DNA of 13,090 nt, taken from the IMG/VR virus record IMGVR_UViG_3300029504_000072; one strand, 5' to 3'. The notes under the pieces were generated by a model. That model ran no database searches and was not told the origin of the DNA. It saw only the letters and a program-made list of their open reading frames with translations. Of this stretch, positions 1-13,090 are shown piece by piece (the first letter of the stretch is position 1; the number at the start of each line of letters is the position of its first letter). Both the position numbers and the translations under genes were made by a program. Source of the stretch: a virus. Taxonomy: Duplodnaviria; Heunggongvirae; Uroviricota; Caudoviricetes.

Positions 1-89
1 AGCTGATAGAAACAGAAGCCACTGGAGCACCTCAAAAACACCATCATACACTAAATCAGTAAGTTGGCAGCATCACCCGAACAGCGTTC

Positions 90-1184
90 ATGCGTTCAAC
101 TGGTACGACAGATATTCGGGAAGCCCGAGTCATTCGTGACCGGATAATGTATGAGTTTTTCACCATCCGTGATCGACTGAAACCAAAGCCACAGGGAAAT
201 TGTGTTGATCGCGTATTGAAAGAACTACGTCAGGTTGACCAATACGTCACCCAGAATGTGGGGATCGACTTCGCCACGGCTCGCGTGTGTCCTTCTCTTG
301 TCCAACTACGGGATGAATTCATTGTCCAACACAGTGACAGGCGCAAGCTGTCTACTTTGAGCAAGTACATCAAGGCCGTAGAGGTGTTCACGGCACATTT
401 CAGGTGCAAGGATTTCCGCCTGCACGAGATCAACAGAACGATGGTGACTGACTGGCTCGACAACGCAAAACTTGAACGGGCAACACAGACACTGGCAAAT
501 TATTTGGGCTGCTTGTCCCAACTGGTGGCGCTGGCCCAGAACCGCTACCACGATGCGCCAAAAGAGAACGTCTTCACAGCCCATAAGCTGGATGTGCGAC
601 ATGATCACGAGAGTTACGAGCCATTCAGCGGTGATGAACTGGCGCAGGTTGTGGATTTGCTTGATCAGGAGATGAAGGAAGTCGCGTTGGTGGGAATGTA
701 TACCGGGATGCAACTTAATGAAATCTGTTCGCTACAGATCGACAATATCAAAACGGTAGAGGGGGTTTGGTGTTTCGAAGTGACGGAAGGCAAGACGCGC
801 AATGCGGCCCGCCTGGTTCCCATTCATAGCAAGTTACGGACTCTCGTTAAACATCTTATCCAGAACAATCACAGCGGCTTCCTGTTCTACCATGCCAGTA
901 TAACTGAACGAGCAGACGGCAAGCGCTCTACATGGCACACACAGCGATTCACACGGGCTAAACGGAAGGCGCTAGGAGAGAAGGGGACAGAAAGAAAGGT
1001 ATTTCACAGCCTGCGGGGAATGTTTATCAGCCAGCTTGATCACGGTGGTGTCCCAGAAGACAGGATCGCATTGATCGTAGGTCACGAGAGAGGGAAAACT
1101 GAATCATTCCGCACCTATAGCCAAGGTGCCAGTATGAAGGAGTTAGCAACCTATGTTAATTTGGCAACCTACAAGAAAATTTAG
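90..1184 (+). CDS. Phage-type tyrosine integrase (site-specific recombinase)
   Basis: 364-aa ORF; upstream in-frame stop at 60-62. C-terminal box II HSLRGMF (H-x-x-R), then VGHERG...FRTY (His and terminal Tyr nucleophile). Box I region reads TGMQLNE, with Gln where the catalytic Arg normally sits. No clear Shine-Dalgarno before the ATG. Confidence 0.8.
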   Translation: MRSTGTTDIREARVIRDRIMYEFFTIRDRLKPKPQGNCVDRVLKELRQVDQYVTQNVGIDFATARVCPSLVQLRDEFIVQHSDRRKLSTLSKYIKAVEVFTAHFRCKDFRLHEINRTMVTDWLDNAKLERATQTLANYLGCLSQLVALAQNRYHDAPKENVFTAHKLDVRHDHESYEPFSGDELAQVVDLLDQEMKEVALVGMYTGMQLNEICSLQIDNIKTVEGVWCFEVTEGKTRNAARLVPIHSKLRTLVKHLIQNNHSGFLFYHASITERADGKRSTWHTQRFTRAKRKALGEKGTERKVFHSLRGMFISQLDHGGVPEDRIALIVGHERGKTESFRTYSQGASMKELATYVNLATYKKI

Positions 1185-1253
1185 GTGACAAAAAGCAATA
1201 AATAATTACAATTACGTTCAAAAAACCATCCAGGGAAAGTGAGTTAAAAACAA

Positions 1254-1490
1254 GTGATTAAAAAAATTATCATCATCATATTGTTAATTGTAGCGGGTCT
1301 TTGGGGCTATGGGGCAAGTATTGGTTACTCTCAAAACGATAAGGGAGTATCTTTATTCCAAGTTGCTTACACATATAACTCCCTGAATTTTATAAGTCAG
1401 TATGGATATATGTTTTTCATACGACAAAACCATCAATTAGTCGAAAGAGCTAAAGATTTAAATCGTGATTTTGAGCATAATACAAATTAA
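1254..1490 (+). CDS. Hypothetical small membrane protein (78 aa, GTG start)
   Basis: N-terminal hydrophobic helix KKIIIIILLIVAGLWGY; AT-rich; in tandem with the next ORF. Non-ATG start and weak RBS lower confidence. Confidence 0.35.
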   Translation: MIKKIIIIILLIVAGLWGYGASIGYSQNDKGVSLFQVAYTYNSLNFISQYGYMFFIRQNHQLVERAKDLNRDFEHNTN

Positions 1491-1505
1491 CCACTGGAGC
1501 CTTTA

Positions 1506-1778
1506 ATGAAAAAAATTATTTTCGTATCATTAATTTCATTTTCAGCCATTGCTTCATATGCTGATACACCTTACGCAGATGAGAAAGAAATGTCAGAAGA
1601 TGTATCTCTTTTAGCCCAGTCATCTCTATTATATAAGAGTAATGGTGAGAAAAGAATGTATGATAATACAAAGATGCTATGTATTGGCATCCAAGGAAAG
1701 TACGATCTAACAAATAACAGGACTGAAAACATGATCCGATGGATGGGAAAAGTTCAAAGTATCTGCTCTGATTATTAA
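1506..1778 (+). CDS. Hypothetical small secreted protein (90 aa) with Sec-type signal peptide
   Basis: GGAG at 1496-1499, 6 nt before the ATG. N-terminus MKKIIFVSLISFSAIASYA followed by a polar mature part with two Cys. No family recognised. Confidence 0.55.
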   Translation: MKKIIFVSLISFSAIASYADTPYADEKEMSEDVSLLAQSSLLYKSNGEKRMYDNTKMLCIGIQGKYDLTNNRTENMIRWMGKVQSICSDY

Positions 1779-1779
1779 T

Positions 1780-1809
1780 AAAAAAACCGGGCGGTTTTAC
1801 CCGTCCGGT
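1780..1809 (-). terminator. Intrinsic terminator-like hairpin, canonical for minus-strand transcripts
   Basis: 9-bp stem ACCGGGCGG / CCGTCCGGT (one G-U pair) with loop TTTTAC at 1786-1809. The A-run at 1780-1786 becomes a U-tract after the hairpin on the minus strand; on the plus strand the hairpin alone follows the 1506-1778 stop. Confidence 0.45.
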
Positions 1810-1909
1810 CAGATAGCATCTTTCAGTTTTTGCTGCATTGCGTAATGGTGTATAGCGGGTTCGAGGCCGACGCTGGCGACCTTGCTCAGAAATGTTGAGC
1901 GATGCACAC

Positions 1910-1913
1910 CTAA
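1910..1913. repeat. IS5 target-site duplication, left copy (CTAA)
   Basis: CTAA directly abuts the left IS5 terminal inverted repeat and is repeated at 3109-3112; IS5 makes 4-bp duplications at YTAR-like targets. Confidence 0.9.
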
Positions 1914-3108
<1,195 letters not shown>

Positions 3109-3112
3109 CTAA
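3109..3112. repeat. IS5 target-site duplication, right copy (CTAA)
   Basis: CTAA directly after the right IS5 inverted repeat, matching 1910-1913. Confidence 0.9.
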
Positions 3113-3173
3113 CATTTTAAATGTTGGAATCGCAACGTAGTTATTATCATATAACAGCTTGTTTCCTGATTTA

Positions 3174-3201
3174 GCCAGCCTCCCCAAAGGCTGGTTTTTT
3201 T
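3174..3201 (+). terminator. Rho-independent terminator (plus-strand orientation)
   Basis: Stem CCAGCC (3175-3180) / GGCTGG (3189-3194), 8-nt loop, then a T-run at 3195-3201. Lies between IS5 and the blc stop. Confidence 0.55.
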
Positions 3202-3229
3202 CTAATAAGTATCATTTCGGGTGGGGATT

Positions 3230-3754
3230 TTATTGTTTAACCCATAATAGTTCATTGACATTGAATCCCAACTTTTGAGCGGTACGCACATAGTCTGCTT
3301 TTACATTATCTGGAATAGTTTGGGTCCTTGCCAGAATCCATAGGTATTCTCTGTTCGGACCACTGACAAGAGCATACTTATACTCATCATCCAGCTTGAT
3401 TACATTATAGCCACCATAGAAGGGGCCAAAAAACGAAACTTTCAACGCTGCAGTTTTAGTATCTCCAGTAAAGTATGCTTTACCTTCGCTCTCGCTCCAT
3501 TTGTTTTTCGTTGGATCGTATCCACGGTTAAGTACGCGAATCCCTCCGTCGTTCCGTTTTTCATAAGTAGCGCTGACTTGTTCCAGACCACGTTCGAACC
3601 AGTTCTCGAGGCGAGCTATTTCATACCATTTTCCGAGGTAGCGGTTGGCGTCAAAATTTGTAATCGGCTGCACACCTTTAGGTGGTGTCGGGGCCTTACA
3701 TGCTATAAGAGTGAAAGAGAGTGCAATGCCAGTCAACACAGGCCATAACTTCAT
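3230..3754 (-). CDS. blc: Outer-membrane lipoprotein, bacterial lipocalin Blc family (divergent paralog)
   Basis: 174-aa ORF with lipoprotein signal and lipobox (MKLWPVLTGIALSFTLIAC); lipocalin motifs NFDANRYLGKWYEIARL and KVSFFGPFYGGYNVI...YLWILAR; roughly half of positions match E. coli Blc as I recall it. Confidence 0.85.
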   Translation of the reverse strand: MKLWPVLTGIALSFTLIACKAPTPPKGVQPITNFDANRYLGKWYEIARLENWFERGLEQVSATYEKRNDGGIRVLNRGYDPTKNKWSESEGKAYFTGDTKTAALKVSFFGPFYGGYNVIKLDDEYKYALVSGPNREYLWILARTQTIPDNVKADYVRTAQKLGFNVNELLWVKQ

Positions 3755-3946
3755 AATAAATCCTGTACTTTTGATAGTTGAGAGTAAGTATGAAAGATAG
3801 ATGAGTACGACCGATCACTTAAAGAACTTTCCTACTATATTAGGAATAGTCAATAACAGAAAAATTGTCAGTGATGAAGCCAGAAAGGCAATTTAGTCCG
3901 TGCACTACAAAGTTTATGTGTTAATGAATTAGTCAAGGGGGAGGAA

Positions 3947-4906
3947 ATGATAAAAAAACCTGTGATTGGGATCAGCGGTTGTTTGGGCGGTTCTGCTGTT
4001 CGTTTTGATGGTGGTCACAAAAGAGATGACTTTTTAATGGACAAATTAGTGGAATGGGTAACATTCAGACCAGTATGTCCGGAAATGGCTATAGGGCTGC
4101 CAGTTCCGCGTCCTGCTCTACGACTTGTGCGCTCGAAGCAAGGAAATATACGGATGTGTTTCAGCCACGACCAGAATGAGGATGTGACAGAGAGAATGAC
4201 AGAGTTTAGTCGTTCTTATATGGACAAATTAAAGGATGTATCGGGGTTTGTGGTTTGTGCTAAATCTCCCAGCTGTGGCATGGAGCGCGTGCGTGTCTAT
4301 GATGAAAATGGTAATCGAGGTCGTAAAGATGGAGTGGGACTATTTACGAGCACTTTGATGGAAAAGTTTTCCTGGCTACCGGTTGAAGAGGATGGGCGAT
4401 TACATGATCCAGTGCTTCGTGAGAATTTTATTGAAAGAGTTTTTGCTTTGCATGAGCTCAATCATCTTTACAAGGAGAAATTATCAAGAAGAGAGTTATT
4501 AGCTTTTCATAGTCGTTATAAGCTTCAGTTGTTGGCGCATAGCCAGGCAGGCTATAAAGATATGGGACCATTTGTGGCTGCAATACACGAGTGGGCGGAC
4601 CTTGAATCATACTTTGAGGTGTATCGTGATAATCTGATGGCGATTCTCAGAAAACCAGCATCACGTAAAAATCACACGAATGTGCTGATGCATATACAGG
4701 GGTATTTTAGTAATTACTTAAGTACACGCCAGCGTAAAGAGTTGAGCGAGGTTATACTTAACTATCGCTTTGGCACATTGCCTCTTCTTGCGCCGTTGAC
4801 TCTGCTGAAGCATTATCTGGGTGAGTATCCTAATGATTACTTGCTTACACAGAATTACTTCGATCCCTATCCGGAAGAACTGGCTCTAAGACTGATGGTG
4901 AATTAA
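3947..4906 (+). CDS. DUF523/DUF1722 two-domain protein (TudS-like Fe-S domain fused to YbgA-like domain)
   Basis: 319-aa ORF; strong RBS GGGGGAGGAA before the ATG. N-terminal motifs GISGCLGG...VRFDGGHK, VCPE and SPSCG match the Cys-containing DUF523 signature; the C-terminal half resembles YbgA-type DUF1722. Confidence 0.75.
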   Translation: MIKKPVIGISGCLGGSAVRFDGGHKRDDFLMDKLVEWVTFRPVCPEMAIGLPVPRPALRLVRSKQGNIRMCFSHDQNEDVTERMTEFSRSYMDKLKDVSGFVVCAKSPSCGMERVRVYDENGNRGRKDGVGLFTSTLMEKFSWLPVEEDGRLHDPVLRENFIERVFALHELNHLYKEKLSRRELLAFHSRYKLQLLAHSQAGYKDMGPFVAAIHEWADLESYFEVYRDNLMAILRKPASRKNHTNVLMHIQGYFSNYLSTRQRKELSEVILNYRFGTLPLLAPLTLLKHYLGEYPNDYLLTQNYFDPYPEELALRLMVN

Positions 4907-5312
4907 CTGTATGCGATATCATCTGAAAGTGATGAGTTCCTGTATGCAGGATATTTACAATCGTAAAAACTACGCTATGATGCTCATAGTGTCAGTTTTT
5001 ATAAAAATCCTGTTCACGCTAAAGAAAACATTGAGATGCAATTTAATGTTGGTAAACATACCAGCCCCAAACGATTTTATTCAATCTGTTTTTATATGAA
5101 GATATTTCAAGTGAATATTAAGAGTATATAATATTATTATTGCACGCAGCTATTATAATATAACAGATTAGTTTAATGATTTGTTTTTTGTGAGTTAAAC
5201 ACATGGTTTTATAGTTGTGATGCAATGAGATTTTCCTTATTGTTGAACTGGCGAATATTGATTTTCCACCTATACTTACCTGGTGTAACCCCAATGATAT
5301 CAGGTGGATAAT

Positions 5313-6026
5313 ATGCCATACATATGTTCTATCATTTTGGTGTTGAACTCGTTTGGTGTCCGAATTGGTAAAGAAGATATTTTGTTTAAAAAAGGAAATG
5401 CTGTCCTCATTGAATACAATTTAAAAGATCTTTTTTCGTCAAATACAGATCATCTAATGATCGTAGATGTTGAGGAGAAAACAGTTAATGATTTCTTTAA
5501 AAACTACACACTCTCACCTTTTTCTGTAAGAAGGTTTTATCCGTCATACTTGATAGTAGAATGTGAAGATTTTTCATTGTTAAGGAACTTGGTTGCATGC
5601 TTGAATTGTGATAGCAAAACCGTGGATGTAGTTAGAAATCAAATATCACTTGCATGTCTTGCTGTCTTATCTTCAGAGAAAATAGTGCAAAGTTTTTTGT
5701 TCGGAAGTCTTAATAGCTTAGGTTGTAAAGTTAAGGCTATTATTCACTCGGATATCTCAGCGTCATGGAGACTTTGTGATATATCTTCAAGATTATATAT
5801 GAGCGAGAGTTTGTTAAAAAGAAAATTAAAAGACGAAGGATTATCGTTTAGTAAATTAATTCTTGAAGAACGAATGATGATGGCGCAAAGATTATTGATC
5901 TACAGTAACCATACTGTCGGCAAGGTGGCGGGAATATGCGGGTATGACAATGCATCATATTTTGTAAGTGTTTTTAGAGGATATTTTGGTGTGCCTCCGC
6001 ACCAATATTTATCAAGATTTTCTTAG
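5313..6026 (+). CDS. AraC/XylS-family transcriptional regulator, AppY-like
   Basis: C-terminal AraC HTH (LLKRKLKDEGLSFSKLILEERMMMAQRLL...KVAGICGYDNASYFVSVFRGYFGVPPHQY); N-terminus MPYICSIILVL resembles AppY-type regulators. I place the start at ATG 5313 (RBS AGGTGG at 5302-5307) rather than the track's GTG 5304. AT-rich gene and upstream region. Confidence 0.8.
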   Translation: MPYICSIILVLNSFGVRIGKEDILFKKGNAVLIEYNLKDLFSSNTDHLMIVDVEEKTVNDFFKNYTLSPFSVRRFYPSYLIVECEDFSLLRNLVACLNCDSKTVDVVRNQISLACLAVLSSEKIVQSFLFGSLNSLGCKVKAIIHSDISASWRLCDISSRLYMSESLLKRKLKDEGLSFSKLILEERMMMAQRLLIYSNHTVGKVAGICGYDNASYFVSVFRGYFGVPPHQYLSRFS

Positions 6027-6094
6027 AAGATATGATGTGATGGCATTTTATAAAGTTATTTTTTGAAGTGTAAGATTATACGATATTTTTAGCT

Positions 6095-6126
6095 ACGCCA
6101 GAATAATTGCTGGCGTTTTTCTTTTT
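6095..6126 (+). terminator. Rho-independent terminator downstream of the AraC gene, upstream of the holin (possible tR'-like)
   Basis: Perfect 7-bp stem ACGCCAG / CTGGCGT (6095-6101, 6110-6116), 8-nt loop, then TTTTCTTTTT at 6117-6126. Confidence 0.65.
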
Positions 6127-6216
6127 GAATAGATGTTCGGGCCTTACGCTAATGTAACTTCTTTCCTTCTTCGAACCAAACCGTGTACACCATCCGTTAT
6201 CTGCGGAGGTGAGGCT

Positions 6217-6432
6217 ATGAAATCCATGGATAAGTTAACAACGGGCATCGCCTACAGCACCTCTGCAGGCAGTGCTGGCTACTGGTTTTTACAGTTGCTC
6301 GATAAAGTCACACCCTCACAGTGGGCGGCAATAGGTGTATTGGGTAGTCTGGTATTTGGCATGCTGACGTATCTGACAAACCTTTATTTCAAGATTAAAG
6401 AAGACAGGCGTAAGGCTGCGAGAGGAGAGTAA
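6217..6432 (+). CDS. Class II holin (phage 21 S-type pinholin) with dual-start motif
   Basis: 71-aa product [31 protein letters not shown]...[13 protein letters not shown]; two TM segments and a charged C-terminus; Met1 and Met4 starts (antiholin/holin); RBS GGAGGTGAGG at 6205-6214. The track's 99-aa ORF from 6133 carries an N-terminal extension with no RBS. Confidence 0.85.
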
Positions 6433-6436
6433 GACA

Positions 6437-6655
6437 ATGACTAAAAACTATGAACTGATTGTGAAAGGGACCCGCAATTTTGAGAATAAAGTTACGGTAA
6501 TCTTAACGTTACAGGACAAAGAACGTTTTGCCGGTGAAATTTTTGATCTGAACATCAACCTTGAGCGACTTGAAGGAGCTGGTTTGGATTATTATGAAGT
6601 TACTGCGGTAAAACATGCCAAACAGTTCTTGAGAGATTTGGCTGAAAAAATATAA
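6437..6655 (+). CDS. Hypothetical 72-aa protein between holin and endolysin (positional equivalent of Qin ydfR)
   Basis: RBS AGGAG at 6423-6427; soluble, no TM. Occupies the slot where Qin-like prophages carry a small gene between S and R; homology not verifiable here. Confidence 0.5.
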   Translation: MTKNYELIVKGTRNFENKVTVILTLQDKERFAGEIFDLNINLERLEGAGLDYYEVTAVKHAKQFLRDLAEKI

Positions 6656-6673
6656 AGCGGCATTACTGCCGCT
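6656..6673. terminator. Bidirectional hairpin between convergent small genes
   Basis: Perfect 7-bp stem AGCGGCA / TGCCGCT with 4-nt loop TTAC, starting 1 nt after the 6437-6655 stop. The A-rich plus-strand flank at 6644-6655 gives a U-tract for the minus-strand transcript. Confidence 0.5.
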
Positions 6674-6766
6674 TAGAAATTATTCAATGTCTGGTAGCTT
6701 ATCAAAGATTTCGGATACTCTTATATTTGTCATATAAGCAAATTGAGATTCTGCCAGCTCTTTGGG

Positions 6767-6976
6767 TTATTTTCCCGCTTTTTCTGAGCCAAAAATTGTT
6801 TCTAAAGCCAGCATGTTATATTTGAGAACCTCTTCTCGAGTTTTACCTGATAATTTTGCGGTAACAGCAATATAAAAAGGCAACACTTTATCCAGAAGGT
6901 CGTTGTGTTTTGTCAGTTGTGGTAATACCACATCAAGTTGCTTACTGATTGGTTTGAATGGATCTATACCGTTCAT
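6767..6976 (-). CDS. Hypothetical 69-aa protein, antisense to the lysis operon
   Basis: Minus-strand ORF MNGIDPFKPISKQLDVVLPQ...FGSEKAGK; AGGGA 8 nt upstream of its ATG (spacing long); ends at the shared hairpin. No family recognised. Confidence 0.45.
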   Translation of the reverse strand: MNGIDPFKPISKQLDVVLPQLTKHNDLLDKVLPFYIAVTAKLSGKTREEVLKYNMLALETIFGSEKAGK

Positions 6977-7080
6977 AGTTACATTCCCTTATCAGAGGTA
7001 ATCAGCCATCCCCCCTTTATTACACACGCCAGTATCCACCACTGACGGGCTGAGTGCTTAACATATCTAGAGATTAGAAA

Positions 7081-7099
7081 CTGATAAATCCTGATAAAT
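7081..7099. repeat. Tandem direct repeat CTGATAAAT(C)CTGATAAAT just upstream of the endolysin start
   Basis: CTGATAAAT at 7081-7089 and 7091-7099; a third copy of CTGATAA in inverted orientation (TTATCAG) at 6991-6997. All fall in the divergent intergenic region 6977-7103. Confidence 0.4.
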
Positions 7100-7103
7100 A
7101 TCC

Positions 7104-8131
<1,028 letters not shown>

Positions 8132-8314
8132 ATTAATATTAAATCGGATTATTTTTAGCGCTGAATGTGAAATTTAAATAAAAAGGACTCTTCCATGAGT
8201 CAAAATCCTTGAAATCTTAAGGGTAAGATAAAAGGTCATTAGACAGAATGACACGTTTTATTAATAAATAAAGCTATTGTTTCATTCGTGTGTTTTTCTT
8301 TACAAAAGTAATCC

Positions 8315-8391
8315 TTGCTATGGTTGGTTAATCATGCGTTAATGGTGTTCTGGTTTGTTACAAAATTATCTGAAGCAGTCATTGTTATAAT
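8315..8391 (+). promoter_or_regulatory. Candidate promoter region for the cold-shock gene
   Basis: cspA-like -35 TTGCTA (8315-8320) with 17-bp spacer to -10 GTTAAT (8338-8343), preceded by an AT-rich UP-like tract; alternatively an extended -10 TGTTATAAT at 8383-8391. Either gives a long (about 95-145 nt) 5' UTR. Confidence 0.35.
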
Positions 8392-8494
8392 TTTATTATT
8401 TGTACCTCTTGAGATTTCCTTGTTGGTTTTTCTCTCTGATATTTTTTTTCGGACCATTCTGCCCAAGGGCTAACTTCTTCAAAAGGTAATAATG

Positions 8495-8707
8495 ATGTCT
8501 AACAAAATGACTGGTTTAGTGAAATGGTTTAACCCTGAAAAAGGTTTTGGTTTCATCACGCCGAAAGATGGTAGCAAAGATGTGTTTGTCCATTTCTCAG
8601 CTATTCAGAGCAACGATTTCAAAACGTTAACTGAGAATCAGGAAGTAGAATTTGGTATTGAGAACGGACCTAAAGGCCCCGCGGCTGTTCATGTTGTGGC
8701 ACTTTGA
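8495..8707 (+). CDS. cspI: CspA-family cold-shock protein (CspI-like, 70 aa)
   Basis: Cold-shock domain with RNP1/RNP2 motifs ([16 protein letters not shown]); protein [20 protein letters not shown]...; RBS AAGG at 8483-8486. Start taken at the second ATG (8495), not the track's 8492. Synteny with rz, gnsB and terminase fits the Qin cspI context. Confidence 0.9.
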
Positions 8708-8906
8708 GGTAGAAAATATTACAAACCATATTCACTTTAGATGCCCGTGTTGCCATGGTTCTCAGTATAGAACATCATCTTTTGATGTTTCTGACAGGAA
8801 TCCTTTCGGGGCAAAATGTATCTTTTGTAAATCAATGATGATTACATTTGATAATATTTCACAATACTTAAATGTTAGCCGTCTGTCGTTAGATTTAAGA
8901 AAGTGA
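8691..8906 (+). CDS. Hypothetical Zn-ribbon small protein (Ogr/Delta-like Cys spacing), overlaps the cspI 3' end
   Basis: 71-aa ORF from ATG 8691 (17-nt overlap with cspI); four-Cys motif CPCC-x21-CIFC; followed directly by a strong terminator. No good RBS, so possibly translationally coupled or not a gene. Confidence 0.3.
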
Positions 8907-8913
8907 AAATGAA

Positions 8914-8934
8914 GGCTCCTTCGGGAGCTTTTTT
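8914..8934 (+). terminator. Rho-independent terminator with UUCG tetraloop
   Basis: Stem GGCTCC / GGAGCT (one G-U pair), loop TTCG, then a T-run through 8934. Confidence 0.7.
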
Positions 8935-8978
8935 GCTTAGTGTCTAGTCGATGGATACTCACATATTACGGTAACATT

Positions 8979-9209
8979 ATGAAAAAAATAATAGTTTTTT
9001 TTAACTCTGAACCAGCAATGGTAGTGCCAGTGATGACCGGAGTTAACACCATCATGCGTGAATATCCAAATGGCGAAACAACACACCTCACTGTAATGGC
9101 TGCAGGGTTTCCATCTCTGACCGGAGATCATAAAGTCATTTATGTAGCAGCGGATCGACATGTAACTTCAGAAGAAATTCTGGAAGCAGCAATGAGACTC
9201 TTGAATTGA
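8979..9209 (+). CDS. Hypothetical 76-aa protein between cspI and gnsB (YnfN/YmcE-position gene)
   Basis: ATG at 8979 (the track's ORF starts at GTG 8940); product MKKIIVFFNSEPAMVVPVMTG...; assigned by position only. Confidence 0.45.
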   Translation: MKKIIVFFNSEPAMVVPVMTGVNTIMREYPNGETTHLTVMAAGFPSLTGDHKVIYVAADRHVTSEEILEAAMRLLN

Positions 9210-9303
9210 TTTGATTCTAATGCATTGATAATAAATGATAATCATCTTTATCTGTTTGTGTGAAATTTAGACCGTCGTATGTTGATTATTGCGATGTTTC
9301 ATC

Positions 9304-9332
9304 TTATCTTTTATACGCTTGCTCCATATAAT
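9304..9332 (+). promoter_or_regulatory. Candidate sigma70 promoter upstream of gnsB-like gene
   Basis: Consensus -10 TATAAT at 9327-9332, about 50 nt upstream of the start codon; -35 is weak (TTATCT). Confidence 0.3.
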
Positions 9333-9381
9333 TGACACTACTGTGTACCAGGAAAGTCATAACAGACTAAAAGAGGAAATG

Positions 9382-9555
9382 ATGAACATTGAAGAGTTAA
9401 AAACAAAAACAGAAGCAGATATTTCTGAATATATAACAAAAAAAATCATTGAGCTTAAGAAAAAGACCGGGAAAGAAGTTACCAGTATCCAGTTTACTGC
9501 ACGGGAAAAAATGACTGGTCTTGAAAGCTATGATATCAAGATTGATTTAATCTAG
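9382..9555 (+). CDS. gnsB: GnsA/GnsB-family small protein (57 aa)
   Basis: MNIEELKTKTEADISEYITKKIIELKKKTGKEVTSIQFTAREKMTGLESYDIKIDLI; RBS AAGAGGA at 9371-9377. True start is the internal ATG (9382, or 9379), not the track's 9289. Confidence 0.8.
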   Translation: MNIEELKTKTEADISEYITKKIIELKKKTGKEVTSIQFTAREKMTGLESYDIKIDLI

Positions 9556-9615
9556 TCTGTTTAGTATTAGCATCAATTTCTCATCAGATGCTATTCAACA
9601 ATACAAATTACCCAT

Positions 9616-9640
9616 AAACCTCGTTTTTACGGGGTTTTGT
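9616..9640 (+). terminator. Putative intrinsic terminator after the gnsB-like gene
   Basis: Stem ACCTCG / CGGGGT (one G-U pair), loop TTTTTA, then TTTTGTTATATTT. Confidence 0.4.
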
Positions 9641-9848
9641 TATATTTAAACATTACCGAATAGGTATAAATCTCGATTGTCGATGGTATTGGTTGTGTGA
9701 CAATACCTAGTCTTTCCGGTATGCCTGAAGAGAATACAAACGACAGATTATGTAAGGGAAACGCGCTGAATCTTTAACTCTTTCATGCTGAGTGATTTGA
9801 CGTTATATTTTTAGCCGTAAGTGAAGAGCAAACGCATGGAGCGACATA

Positions 9849-10055
9849 ATGCATAAAGATCAATACACTGATGCCCCCTCCCAGGAGCAGGTTCGTGTAA
9901 AAACTATGCTTAATAGCACCATTTCGATGGGTTACCCGGATGTTGTAATTGCATGTATAGAACATCAAGTGTCTCTGGAAGCATTCAGGGCAATTGAGGC
10001 CGCGTTAGTAAAGCACGATAAGAATACGAAGGATTATTCCCTGGTGGTTGACTGA
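9849..10055 (+). CDS. Hypothetical 68-aa protein
   Basis: GGAG at 9838-9841, 7 nt before the ATG; product [40 protein letters not shown]...; no family recognised. Confidence 0.45.
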
Positions 10056-10399
10056 TCACCATAACTGCTAACCATTCTGACCATTTCACAAGTGACAGAG
10101 TCAATATCGTATTCTGTCACTGTCAGGCTAATACAGCAATGCAATTCAACTACAGCAATGCCTCGTATTTAGGTGAATTTACAATATCGTCCAGTTCGGA
10201 TGCCGGCTGCATTTCTGAAGATAAGGCATTTCGGTTCTCGTATTTTCCCCTCATGCTCGTCAGTCCTGCGCGTAGTAAGAGACAGGACACTCACACTAAT
10301 TTGTGTGGGCATGCTGTGATGTCCTTCTGAATTATCCCCATGCCATTATGTAAAGCTCTGTTACAGATGCTCGTCACGGTTGTCAGGCTGTCGGGTCCT

Positions 10400-10560
10400 C
10401 CCAGTGGGGGGCCCTGCCACGGGGCGGGAGCGTCGCGGAAAAAGGCTAGTTTTTGAAATTTTATTCGTCATCACCACTACTGTAATTGATTGGTATTACA
10501 GTGGTTTTATTTTTATGGTGTCGATTCTGATTGTTTTTTGTTCATCGCTAACACCGTTTG
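10400..10560 (+). other. Lambda-like cohesive-end site (cos), predicted cosN overhang GGGCGGGAGCGT at 10422-10433
   Basis: GC-rich CACGGGGCGGGAGCGTCGCGG in an AT-rich context matches lambda ACGGGGCGGCGACCTCGCGGG at 16 of 21 positions; downstream TTGAAATTTTATTCGTCAT echoes lambda cosB; 8-bp inverted repeat ACTGTAAT/ATTACAGT at 10479-10502; sits directly upstream of the terminase small-subunit gene as in lambda. Confidence 0.6.
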
Positions 10561-10607
10561 CCTAAAGTTGTTCGCAAGATGCATGTTTAAAACATTCTGG
10601 AGCGGGT

Positions 10608-11102
10608 ATGGATCGAGAGTTAAAAAATCTGACGCTGAATATCAGTCAACTGGCGGCATTGTCAGGTGTACATCGCCAGACTGCTGCGGCAAGGCTGCAA
10701 AATCTACCCGTTGCAGGGGGGCATGAAAGCAACCTCAAGCTTTATCGGGTGGTTGATATTGTATCGGCATTTCTGGCATTACCACCGCCGGTTGCAGAAG
10801 GCGAAATGGACGCGCATGAGCGCAAAGCCTGGTATCAGTCTGAACGTGAGCGTCTTAAGTTCGAACAGGAAACGGCACAACTCATTCCGGCCAGTGATGT
10901 CAGACGGGAGTTTGCCATCTGGGCAAAAGCGGTCGTGCAGGTGCTGGAGACATTACCGGATATTCTTGAACGTGACTGCGGTCTGCAGCCTGCCGCTGTG
11001 AGCCGTGTTCAGTCCATTATTGATGATCTGCGCGATCAGATAGCCCTGCGGGTGACTGAAGCAGGTGCGGATGATGAGGAGGAATTACAGCAGGAGGAGT
11101 AA
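10608..11102 (+). CDS. Terminase small subunit (lambda Nu1 / NohA-like)
   Basis: 164-aa ORF with N-terminal HTH (LTLNISQLAALSGVHRQTAAARL) and acidic C-terminus; RBS GGAGCGGG; immediately after cos and before the large subunit; stop overlaps the next start (TAATG). Confidence 0.85.
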   Translation: MDRELKNLTLNISQLAALSGVHRQTAAARLQNLPVAGGHESNLKLYRVVDIVSAFLALPPPVAEGEMDAHERKAWYQSERERLKFEQETAQLIPASDVRREFAIWAKAVVQVLETLPDILERDCGLQPAAVSRVQSIIDDLRDQIALRVTEAGADDEEELQQEE

Positions 11103-13090
11103 TGCTGAATCAGGAAACCGCAAAGGCAGCACGAACCGATTCAGGTTATATCCTTCGCGCACCGAGACGAATGCGGGTTGCTGATGCCGTTGCTCAGTAT
11201 ATGCGGGTGCCCATGGGGGCAGGGAACTCAGTCCCGTGGGATCCGCTGGTGGCACCGTATGTTATTGAGCCTATGAACTGCCTGGCCTCGCGTGAATACG
11301 ACGCAGTGATATTTGTTGGCCCGGCACGAACCGGCAAGACTATCGGCCTGATTGACGGCTGGGTGATTTACAACGTGATTTGCGATCCTGCGGATATGCT
11401 GATCATTCAGATGACAGAGGAAAAAGCCCGCGAACACTCCAAAAAACGACTCGCCAGAACGTTTCGCGTCAGCCCGGAAGTGGTCAGTCGCCTGAGTCCG
11501 AACAAAAATGACAACAACGTTTATGACAGAACATTCCTTGCTGGCAACTACCTGAAAATCGGCTGGCCGTCAGTCAATATCATGTCCTCATCAGATTATA
11601 AATGCGTCGCGCTGACGGATTATGACCGTTTTCCGGAAGATATTGATGGCGAGGGGGATGCCTTCTCTCTTGCCTCAAAACGTACCACCACATTTATGTC
11701 CAGCGGTATGACGCTGGTGGAGAGTTCCCCCGGCAGGGATGTGAAGGATGTGAAATGGCGACGGACTTCACCGCATGAGGCTCCACCAACCACGGGGATC
11801 CTGTCGCTCTATAACCGTGGTGATCGCCGTCGCTGGTACTGGCCATGTCCACACTGTGGTGAGTATTTTCAGCCCTGCGGCGATGTGGTTGCTGGTTTCC
11901 GTGATATTGCCGATCCCGTGCTGGCAAGTGAGGCGGCTTATATTCAGTGTCCTTTCTGTTCAGGACGGATTATGCCTGAACAAAAACGTGAGCTGAACGG
12001 ACGTGGGGTCTGGTTGCGGGATGGTGAATCCATCAATGCGGATGGCAGTCGTTATGGTGATCCCAGGCGTTCACGTATTGCGTCATTCTGGATGGAGGGT
12101 CCGGCAGCTGCTTACCAGACACTCTCGCAACTCGTTTACAAACTGCTTACTGCAGAACAGGAATACGAGACAACCGGAAGTGAAGAAACACTCAAGACGG
12201 TTATCAATACCGACTGGGGATTACCTTATCTTCCCCGCGCCAGCATGGAGCAACGAAAAAGTGAACTGCTTGAGCAGCGGGCAGAGCCAGTTCCTTCCCG
12301 CAGTGTGCCAGATGGCGTTAATTTTCTTGTGGCGACAGTGGATGTGCAGGCGGGACGTCATCGCCGTTTTGTGGTTCAGGTAACGGGCTATGGCAGCCGT
12401 GGCGAACGCTGGATTATTGATCGTTACAACATCACGCAGTCATTGCGCGGTGACAGCGACGGGGAGAGCCAGCGAATTGATCCGGCCAGCTATCCGGAAG
12501 ACTGGGATGTCCTGCTGACGGATGTTTTTCATAAAAGCTGGCCGCTGGCCTCCGATCCTTCTCAACAAATGCGACTGATGGCAATGGCGGTGGACTCCGG
12601 CGGTGAAGACGGGGTCACTGATAATGCCTATAAATTCTGGCGTCGTTGCCGTCGTGATGGCCTTGGTAAACGTATTTACCTGTTTAAGGGCGACAGCATC
12701 CGGCGCGCAAAACTGATCACCCGTACATTCCCTGATAACACCGGACGAACGGGCCGACGGGCGCAGGCCGCAGGTGATGTGCCGCTCTGGCTTCTTCAGA
12801 CGGATGCACTGAAAGACCGGGTGAATAACGCGTTATGGCGTGACTCGCCAGGTCCCGGCTATGTGCATTTCCCTGACTGGCTGGGGAGCTGGTTTTACGA
12901 CGAACTGACGTATGAAGAGCGGAGCAGTGACGGGAAATGGAGTAAGCCGGGTCGCGGTGCCAACGAAGCTTTTGACCTGATGGTGTATGCCGAGGCTCTG
13001 GTCATTCTGCATGGATACGAAAAGATCCGCTGGCCGGATGCACCGGAGTGGGCGAGCCGGGAAACCTGGCTGGAGTGTGTCCCGGACAGC
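11102..13090 (+). CDS. Terminase large subunit (lambda gpA family), 3'-partial: runs off the window end
   Basis: Hand translation of frame 2 from ATG 11102 gives 663 codons with no stop to position 13090. Walker A VGPARTGKT; zinc-finger-like WPCPHCGEYF...CPFCSG comparable to lambda gpA ACPHCGEE; acidic nuclease-like motifs downstream. Not in the ORF track because it has no in-window stop. Confidence 0.9.
   Translation, partial: MLNQETAKAARTDSGYILRAPRRMRVADAVAQYMRVPMGAGNSVPWDPLVAPYVIEPMNCLASREYDAVIFVGPARTGKTIGLIDGWVIYNVICDPADMLIIQMTEEKAREHSKKRLARTFRVSPEVVSRLSPNKNDNNVYDRTFLAGNYLKIGWPSVNIMSSSDYKCVALTDYDRFPEDIDGEGDAFSLASKRTTTFMSSGMTLVESSPGRDVKDVKWRRTSPHEAPPTTGILSLYNRGDRRRWYWPCPHCGEYFQPCGDVVAGFRDIADPVLASEAAYIQCPFCSGRIMPEQKRELNGRGVWLRDGESINADGSRYGDPRRSRIASFWMEGPAAAYQTLSQLVYKLLTAEQEYETTGSEETLKTVINTDWGLPYLPRASMEQRKSELLEQRAEPVPSRSVPDGVNFLVATVDVQAGRHRRFVVQVTGYGSRGERWIIDRYNITQSLRGDSDGESQRIDPASYPEDWDVLLTDVFHKSWPLASDPSQQMRLMAMAVDSGGEDGVTDNAYKFWRRCRRDGLGKRIYLFKGDSIRRAKLITRTFPDNTGRTGRRAQAAGDVPLWLLQTDALKDRVNNALWRDSPGPGYVHFPDWLGSWFYDELTYEERSSDGKWSKPGRGANEAFDLMVYAEALVILHGYEKIRWPDAPEWASRETWLECVPDS

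Follow-up and report, generated by a model that had tools for sequence, protein, structure and literature searches.

A 5'-truncated tyrosine integrase gene with glutamine at the box-I arginine position, probably a decaying remnant of a small capsid-encoding island of Enterobacteriaceae

The intG, intK and intQ genes of E. coli K-12 are decayed integrase pseudogenes of cryptic prophages and islands. Among engineered tyrosine recombinases, lambda Int R212Q is a classic mutant of the box-I arginine, defective in cleavage and proficient in binding. This arginine, part of the motif T-G-x-R-x-x-E, is equivalent to R173 in Cre, R212 in lambda Int and R148 in XerC/D (Table 1, PMC2943603). Arg173 of Cre, as seen in the vanadate transition-state structure, forms hydrogen bonds with a non-bridging oxygen and with the 5'-O leaving group (PMC2943603). 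Saturation mutagenesis of Cre Arg173 is described in the same paper, whose sections on this residue discuss retention of activity for His only and, in vivo, for Lys, attribute a 'devastating loss of activity' to the remaining substitutions (R173A being the named example), and tabulate reaction intermediates for H and the wild type only. At this position, called Arg-I below, 91.2% of the tyrosine recombinases in RefSeq have Arg, so that members with another residue exist (PMC2943603).

We examined an integrase ORF in a 13,090-nucleotide stretch of DNA (the window; IMG/VR virus record IMGVR_UViG_3300029504_000072), for which an initial annotation had proposed a Gln at the Arg-I position and, consequently, an inactive or repurposed integrase in an immobilised cryptic element. 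The ORF (90..1184, plus strand) encodes 364 amino acids, contains VGMYTGMQLNEICSLQIDNI and matches the Pfam family PF00589 Phage_integrase over residues 194-337 (E=2.4e-16; 60.4 bits, cut-off 27.1), together with weak matches to SAM-like N-terminal domains and sub-threshold matches to XerA/XerD-type NCBIfam models. An AlphaFold2 model, computed from an input alignment of 31 family sequences, has a mean pLDDT of 71.7 overall and is confident in the catalytic domain (87-94 in the 10-residue blocks of residues 181-270, with the exception of 231-240 at 65). The best Foldseek matches of this model in the PDB are lambda Int, XerA, Tn1549 Int, IntI, Cre and XerD, each with a probability of 1.00. The product of the ORF is a tyrosine recombinase, and its RefSeq record (WP_059239969.1, 'site-specific integrase') is an ordinary CDS with no pseudogene label. 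A search of the phage collection gave integrase relatives of no more than about 28% identity, indicating that the family does not derive from a deposited phage.

The glutamine in question is Q208 (codon CAA, 711..713, plus strand; residue 245 in full-length numbering) in the motif TGMQLNE. Pairwise phmmer alignments place it opposite the Arg of 'TGVRVGE' in XerA 5hxy, of 'TGARWGE' in P2 Int (5c6k/5dor) and of 'AGLRVSE' in P. abyssi XerA 4a8e (chain residue 135 by count; an archaeal tyrosine recombinase review makes no mention of R135). When a profile of 31 family members was used with hmmsearch, the family motif sGmRlnE aligned to identical arginines. Furthermore, a MAFFT alignment with the best 120 homologues from a search of 5.8 billion proteins (57-94% identical) has Arg in this column in 120/120. 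The proposed Gln at the Arg-I position is confirmed. Intact relatives have CGA, CGG or CGC where the window has CAA, which implies a single G>A transition (position 712, CGA>CAA). Among the aligned sequences of this integrase family, a residue other than Arg at Arg-I is unique to the window allele.

Other readings of the motif were considered and rejected. No pairwise or profile alignment agrees with an arginine of the segment TEGKTRNAARL as the true Arg-I, and this segment is the beta-hairpin that bears the Lys (K235). A sequencing or assembly error is contradicted by the presence of CAA in six copies from five complete genomes and of the exact protein on 412 contigs, and a family-wide Gln by the Arg found in all 120 relatives and in the full-length members of the same protein cluster (92-97.5% identity). 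An Ile had also been noted where Trp is often found; it is indeed there, but it is a family trait, since Trp never occupies column 217 in relatives, which have E, I, V or T there.

The remaining active-site residues are intact, all encoded on the plus strand: E211 (720-722), K235 as the catalytic Lys on the beta-hairpin (792-794), box II with H306-S-L-R309 (His-II and Arg-II; 1005..1016), H332 (1083-1085) and the catalytic tyrosine Y343 in RTYSQ (1116..1118). They all fall in family-invariant columns that align to the XerA motifs. The catalytic tyrosine, which had been described as terminal, is not the last Tyr of the ORF. By analogy with the engineered Arg-I mutants, a Gln in box I very probably abolishes catalysis.

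The ORF had been taken as a whole integrase, but it is truncated at its 5' end, with IS1 in place of the first 33 codons and the promoter. Intact relatives have 401-403 amino acids and the architecture DUF6538, SAM-like and PF00589 (in a full-length relative, DUF6538 at residues 9-55 and PF00589 at 231-374). They start with MKYKPNAYLV and read SLFGN followed by RTAFMRSTGT, in which R34 corresponds to window position 78. Nucleotide homology to four intact genes begins exactly at this position, at codon 34 and at the IS1 terminus, indicating that the ATG at 90 is the internal Met38 of the ancestral protein. These four genes come from E. coli 2016C-3878 (L002; 79.6% nucleotide identity to the window), a Logan contig (L010; 91%), an ENA contig (L011) and K. 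pneumoniae (L012; 98.5%). The window accordingly carries codons 34-401 and the stop of an approximately 401-aa tyrosine recombinase gene (78..1184, plus strand). Positions 1..77 (minus strand) are the terminal 77 bp of IS1, its insA-proximal inverted-repeat end, which reads leftwards beyond the edge of the window and is identified by thousands of IS1 matches; the terminal sequence GGTGATGCTGCC... (reverse complement) is the IS1 inverted repeat. Wherever a copy is annotated, the transposase CDS of IS1 runs on the other strand, with its end 68 nt short of the ORF, and the junction, ...GCAGCATCACC joined to CGAACAGCG, is identical in six copies. The first 33 codons, most of DUF6538 and the native promoter and ribosome-binding site are thus lost from the window copy.

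The signals left in front of the ORF suggest that the remnant is not expressed. By direct reading, no Shine-Dalgarno-like motif precedes ATG90 within 20 nt (gcatcacccgaacagcgttc). A consensus scan of the 390 bp upstream in the IS1-joined locus found no promoter-like site facing the ORF, the sole site there being directed away from it, and the same kind of scan found two promoter-like sites facing int in the intact Klebsiella locus. The displaced 5' part of int was not found beyond IS1 in 8 E. coli loci. The DNA beyond IS1 varies by strain (hsdR, hsdM fragments, an amylase fragment, or a P4-type integrase adjoining tRNA-Phe), as is typical of deletions or rearrangements adjacent to IS1.

Downstream of the integrase gene are two small plus-strand ORFs with no family match (1254-1490, 78 aa; 1506-1778, 90 aa), which also follow int in other loci (L012, L013, L005, L006 and L007). 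In the intact island, present in K. pneumoniae (L012 and L013) and in several E. coli, they are succeeded by a 69-aa ORF and a lambda-E-type major capsid gene (PF03864), and beyond the latter by a gene for a head-decoration-like protein (phrog_2680) and several small ORFs. This island also possesses iterons and a replication-initiator-like protein (DUF6945/HTH_36), measures roughly 8.6 kb and is found in Enterobacteriaceae; it carries the capsid and decoration genes without portal or terminase. Its att repeats were sought in L012, where no convincing direct repeat of at least 16 nt was seen, only iterons, and ARAGORN detected no tRNA in the island loci.

Homology of the window to the intact island ends at 1913, where a complete IS5 of 1195 bp (1914..3108, plus strand; inverted repeats GGAAGGTGCGAA at 1914 and 3108) cuts the island 730 bp downstream of int. 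This IS5 encodes a 326-aa DDE transposase (Pfam DDE_Tnp_1; 1982-2962, plus strand) and has CTAA at either side (1910-1913 and 3109-3112). Between IS1 (1-77) and IS5 (1914-3108), the window retains only 1.8 kb of the island, with neither end, and it contains no tRNA or att-like sequence. The proposed immobilised cryptic element is therefore corroborated, as a remnant between two insertion sequences whose island ends are gone. Together, the truncation by IS1 and the cut by IS5 at 1914 would make the gene inactive and the element immobile regardless of R208Q. The rest of the window (3109-13090) is unrelated to the island and matches Qin-like lambdoid prophage regions (rrrQ, terminase), with a late region of lipocalin, YbgA-like protein, AraC regulator, S21 holin, lysozyme, Rz and DUF1441. 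None of the complete E. coli genomes of the collection contains the whole window; the int'-IS5 junction occurs in such genomes, and so, separately, does the IS5-Qin junction, which suggests that two IS5 copies recombined to give the window.

The closest intact relative lies in a K. pneumoniae element (L012) that has 98.5% nucleotide identity over window 78-1913; its integrase of 401 aa (P0125) has 97.5% amino-acid identity to the window protein, and Arg at 173, 208 and 318. Full-length Klebsiella and Enterobacter proteins in the same 90% cluster (92.6-97.5% identical) also all have Arg at these three sites. Over 78-1913 there are 28 mismatches and no gaps, and 21 of the mismatches lie within a mosaic tract (86-284). 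In the remaining approximately 1.6 kb, five changes can be assigned to the window lineage, all of them G>A on the plus strand: two are synonymous (380 and 974) and three replace an arginine, R173H (607), R208Q (712) and R318H (1042). H318 (codon CAC, 1041..1043, plus strand; ancestral CGC, Arg) is ten residues after HSLR in a column that is Arg in 120/120 relatives, and H173 (codon CAC, 606..608, plus strand; ancestral CGC, Arg) is in a column that is R or K in 118/120. Among the 120 relatives 82/364 columns are invariant, and two of the three nonsynonymous changes fall on such columns. Apart from unusual replacements that they share with the window, two near relatives (P0001 and P0002) have none or one of this kind.

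Polymorphisms among the E. coli copies are mostly nonsynonymous as well (C67R, D40V and Y361H against one synonymous change), and intact family members show a dN/dS of about 0.09-0.10. A Fisher test of nonsynonymous to synonymous changes, 4:2 against a background of 32:82, gave p=0.07, and a looser 6:2 tally of our own gave p=0.011, both on tiny counts. These data suggest, without proving, relaxed selection on the window lineage. The whole-gene dN/dS of the window against L010, L011 and L002 is 0.09-0.10, the same as between intact genes; it is uninformative here because a dS of about 0.43 is dominated by divergence that predates the insertion. Counts of unique changes against the same three genes do not distinguish the lineages. 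Only the comparison with the 98.5%-identical Klebsiella copy is informative on selection.

The window allele (at least 99% identity) is present in 36 of 5,426 complete E. coli genomes, always on the chromosome, and the plasmid collection has no copy of the integrase, only a 98-bp partial match. The 364-aa ORF is kept in 15 of the 36; each of the other 21 has been deleted or truncated further, at 7 distinct end points in all, and a 487-bp internal deletion (e.g. in ECONIH4) is common to 15 genomes. Since some of the 36 are near-duplicates, events weigh more than genome counts. Six near-identical full-length copies in five complete genomes all have the identical IS1 junction and CAA. Since none of the E. 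coli copies examined has one feature without the other, either event may have come first. The 412 contigs with the exact 364-aa protein are named from E. coli and Shigella boydii; this identity can be read as conservation, but it is equally expected of a young allele in clonal spread through E. coli and Shigella. Another family member, which is intact (about 85% amino-acid identity, with the box-I Arg), adjoins its capsid gene in 22 other E. coli genomes.

We consider it highly likely that the ORF is a dead, neutrally decaying integrase remnant of the small (approximately 8.6 kb) capsid-encoding integrative island. In the sequence of events that we propose, IS1 would have inserted into the gene, or deleted up to codon 34, with the loss of 33 codons, and so of most of DUF6538, as well as of the promoter and the ribosome-binding site; IS5 would later have cut the island downstream of int and fused what was left to a lambdoid prophage. 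The remaining frame, presumably free of selection, would have gathered neutral changes, among them the three G>A transitions that turned Arg into His, Gln and His. Even translation from Met38 would yield a product without the residue on which stabilisation of the transition state and contact with the 5'-O leaving group depend, and this product would have no att sites as substrate. Neutral decay predicts the kind of substitution pattern that we observe and fits it, with small numbers. Of the initial proposal, the inactive integrase and the immobilised cryptic element are both supported, and the protein is very probably catalytically inactive.

Repurposing, which the initial annotation had offered as the other outcome, would mean that cells express a truncated and catalytically dead protein with core-binding and catalytic domains and keep it as a factor that binds DNA. 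Its possible roles are those of a dominant-negative subunit in dead heteromers or a decoy on core sites, either of which would prevent incoming related islands from integrating or excising, and that of a regulator. The frame has stayed open over 364 codons, the identical protein is found on 412 contigs of E. coli and Shigella, and targets would exist in the related intact islands with about 85% identical integrases in 22 E. coli genomes. However, parts of the ORF are deleted in 21 of the 36 complete genomes that carry the allele, R318H is a second change at an invariant column, the polymorphisms are mostly nonsynonymous, no promoter-like site or Shine-Dalgarno motif faces the ORF, and the N-terminal domain is mostly removed. 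The suggestion is not sustained by this evidence, and we regard it as very unlikely. A related idea, to which we give hardly more credit, is that inactivation was itself selected: after the IS1 event a deregulated recombinase or topoisomerase activity would have been harmful, and R208Q (perhaps with R318H) would have been fixed as a detoxifying change. All three amino-acid changes outside the mosaic tract lose an Arg, two of them at invariant columns, against two synonymous changes; in addition, removal of the N-domain of lambda Int reportedly relieves inhibition of core binding and cleavage. On the other hand, the fact that all five lineage changes, the synonymous ones included, are G>A on one strand points to a mutational bias on CGN codons and not to selection; the promoter consensus scan gives no sign that the fragment is expressed, and the numbers are tiny. 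An expressed dominant-negative fragment and a selected detoxification, taken jointly, still amount to a slim chance; if either were true, the locus would be more than debris and would hold a recombinase that has naturally become dominant-negative or been detoxified.

It is more unlikely still, to the point of being barely credible, that the integrase is active, with the Gln tolerated or another residue compensating at Arg-I. The incomplete conservation of this arginine among RefSeq tyrosine recombinases (91.2%) and the activity of Cre R173H would be compatible with such tolerance (PMC2943603). Nevertheless, Arg is found in 120/120 relatives, the sections of that paper on Arg173 do not list Gln with the active Cre substitutions, the first 33 codons and the promoter are missing, and the island is replaced on both sides by IS1 and IS5. 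As a neutrally decaying remnant, the gene has little biological weight, for an immobilised island is expected to end up with an IS-truncated integrase that gains active-site mutations. The practical consequences concern annotation: WP_059239969.1, with more than 400 contigs, should be flagged as a 5'-truncated, active-site-defective pseudogene, since programs that take an integrase as the sign of a mobile element would otherwise over-call one here. It is also a clean natural example for which a 97.5%-identical intact reference is available in K. pneumoniae. The intact parent island, with its own lambda-E-like capsid and decoration genes, is more interesting than R208Q itself.

Among the known systems, lambda Int R212Q and the R191 mutants of Flp are further engineered Arg-I mutants, with the substitution at the same position as in the window. 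The same is true of the Cre R173 series (Gibb et al. 2010, PMC2943603). Such engineered mutants provide the experimental basis for the predicted loss of cleavage and strand exchange, with DNA binding possibly kept; however, those of Cre, lambda Int and Flp are laboratory-made changes in full-length enzymes, whereas the window has a natural change in a truncated gene. The solved tyrosine recombinases (XerA 4a8e/5hxy, P2 Int 5c6k, lambda Int 1z19/5j0n, Cre and XerD) have the fold of the window protein and its order of motifs, i.e. TGxRxxE, the beta-hairpin Lys, HxxR, His and Tyr. The window protein differs from them by its identity of only 15-24%, by the Gln at Arg-I and by a truncated N-terminal domain of the DUF6538 type. 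Closer at hand, the intact integrases P0125 (97.5%) and WP_061092844.1 of E. coli 2016C-3878 (L002, about 85%) share domain order and downstream genes with the window, but the window copy is without codons 1-33 and the promoter as a result of IS1, carries R173H, R208Q and R318H, and has its island severed by IS5. In its fate the locus resembles pseudogenes of the intG, intK and intQ type, which are likewise integrases broken by IS elements or deletions and decaying in an immobilised element. Unlike such decayed genes, the window copy keeps an open frame of 364 codons, which explains why RefSeq annotates it as an ordinary CDS.

Between the island remnant and its closest intact relative, the copy in Klebsiella pneumoniae, 21 of the 28 differences fall within 200 bp (window 86-284). 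This stretch corresponds to codons 36-102 of the full-length gene, where 15 of the differing codons are synonymous and 5 nonsynonymous, and this clustering indicates a recombination (mosaic) tract in the N-terminal region of the integrase. Outside the tract, comparison with the same 98.5%-identical copy, polarised by three further relatives, assigns five substitutions to the window lineage, and all five are G>A on the plus strand (window 380, 607, 712, 974 and 1042; strains S1 and CX12 retain G at 380). Three of them convert CGN arginine codons to CAN. Such one-sidedness, although seen in five events only, suggests a strand-biased mutational signature of the cytosine-deamination type rather than selection.

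The island remnant borders a complete IS5 (1914-3108) with CTAA at both flanks (window 1910-3112), which connects it to the late region of a Qin-like lambdoid prophage (3109-13090). The left IS5 junction occurs by itself in, for example, E. coli C9, and the right one by itself in, for instance, EC20-72C-1 and S171-1, while both together were found in none of the complete E. coli genomes. The window is therefore probably the outcome of recombination between two IS5 copies. In E. coli C9 the block IS1::int'-IS5-RtT-ycdU-IS3-dgcT, where int' denotes the truncated integrase, is present twice as a tandem segmental duplication; the identical copies lie about 9.2 kb apart (int' at 15090-16184 and 24264-25358 of L001) and adjoin a CP4-44-like island with Ag43, a YeeU-type antitoxin and a type I R-M system.

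The ORF of int' (WP_059239969.1; window 90-1184) is 5'-truncated and defective in the box-I catalytic arginine, yet RefSeq/PGAP labels it as a normal 'site-specific integrase' CDS but gives the pseudogene flag to shorter derivatives, such as C3F40_RS14410 of ECONIH4. This treatment is inconsistent, and could inflate mobile-element counts based on integrases.

The intact parent element, of about 8.6 kb, occupies 8001-16600 of L012 (K. pneumoniae GCA_049577305.1) and is also present in L013 (likewise K. pneumoniae), L010 (a Logan contig), L005-L007 and L002 (E. coli 2016C-3878). Directly upstream of the intact int in the Logan contig (1-35) lies TGGTGCCGATAATAGGAGTCGAACCTACGACCTTC, which, read on the opposite strand, looks like the tRNA-Thr (thrW) 3' end; as the contig breaks off at this point, ARAGORN calls no complete tRNA. 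This resemblance suggests thrW as the integration site of the island family. Besides int, the island encodes a replication-initiator-like protein (DUF6945/HTH_36) along with a lambda-E-like major capsid protein (PF03864) and a head-decoration-like protein (phrog_2680); its iterons, TGAAAATCACCT, lie at L012 15499-15583. Within its ~8.6 kb there is no evident portal, protease or terminase, and no relative of its integrase above 28% identity was found among 50,697 deposited phage genomes. The parent island, which is not placed among the P4-like, PICI or cfPICI elements, looks like a satellite-type element with a capsid protein of its own.
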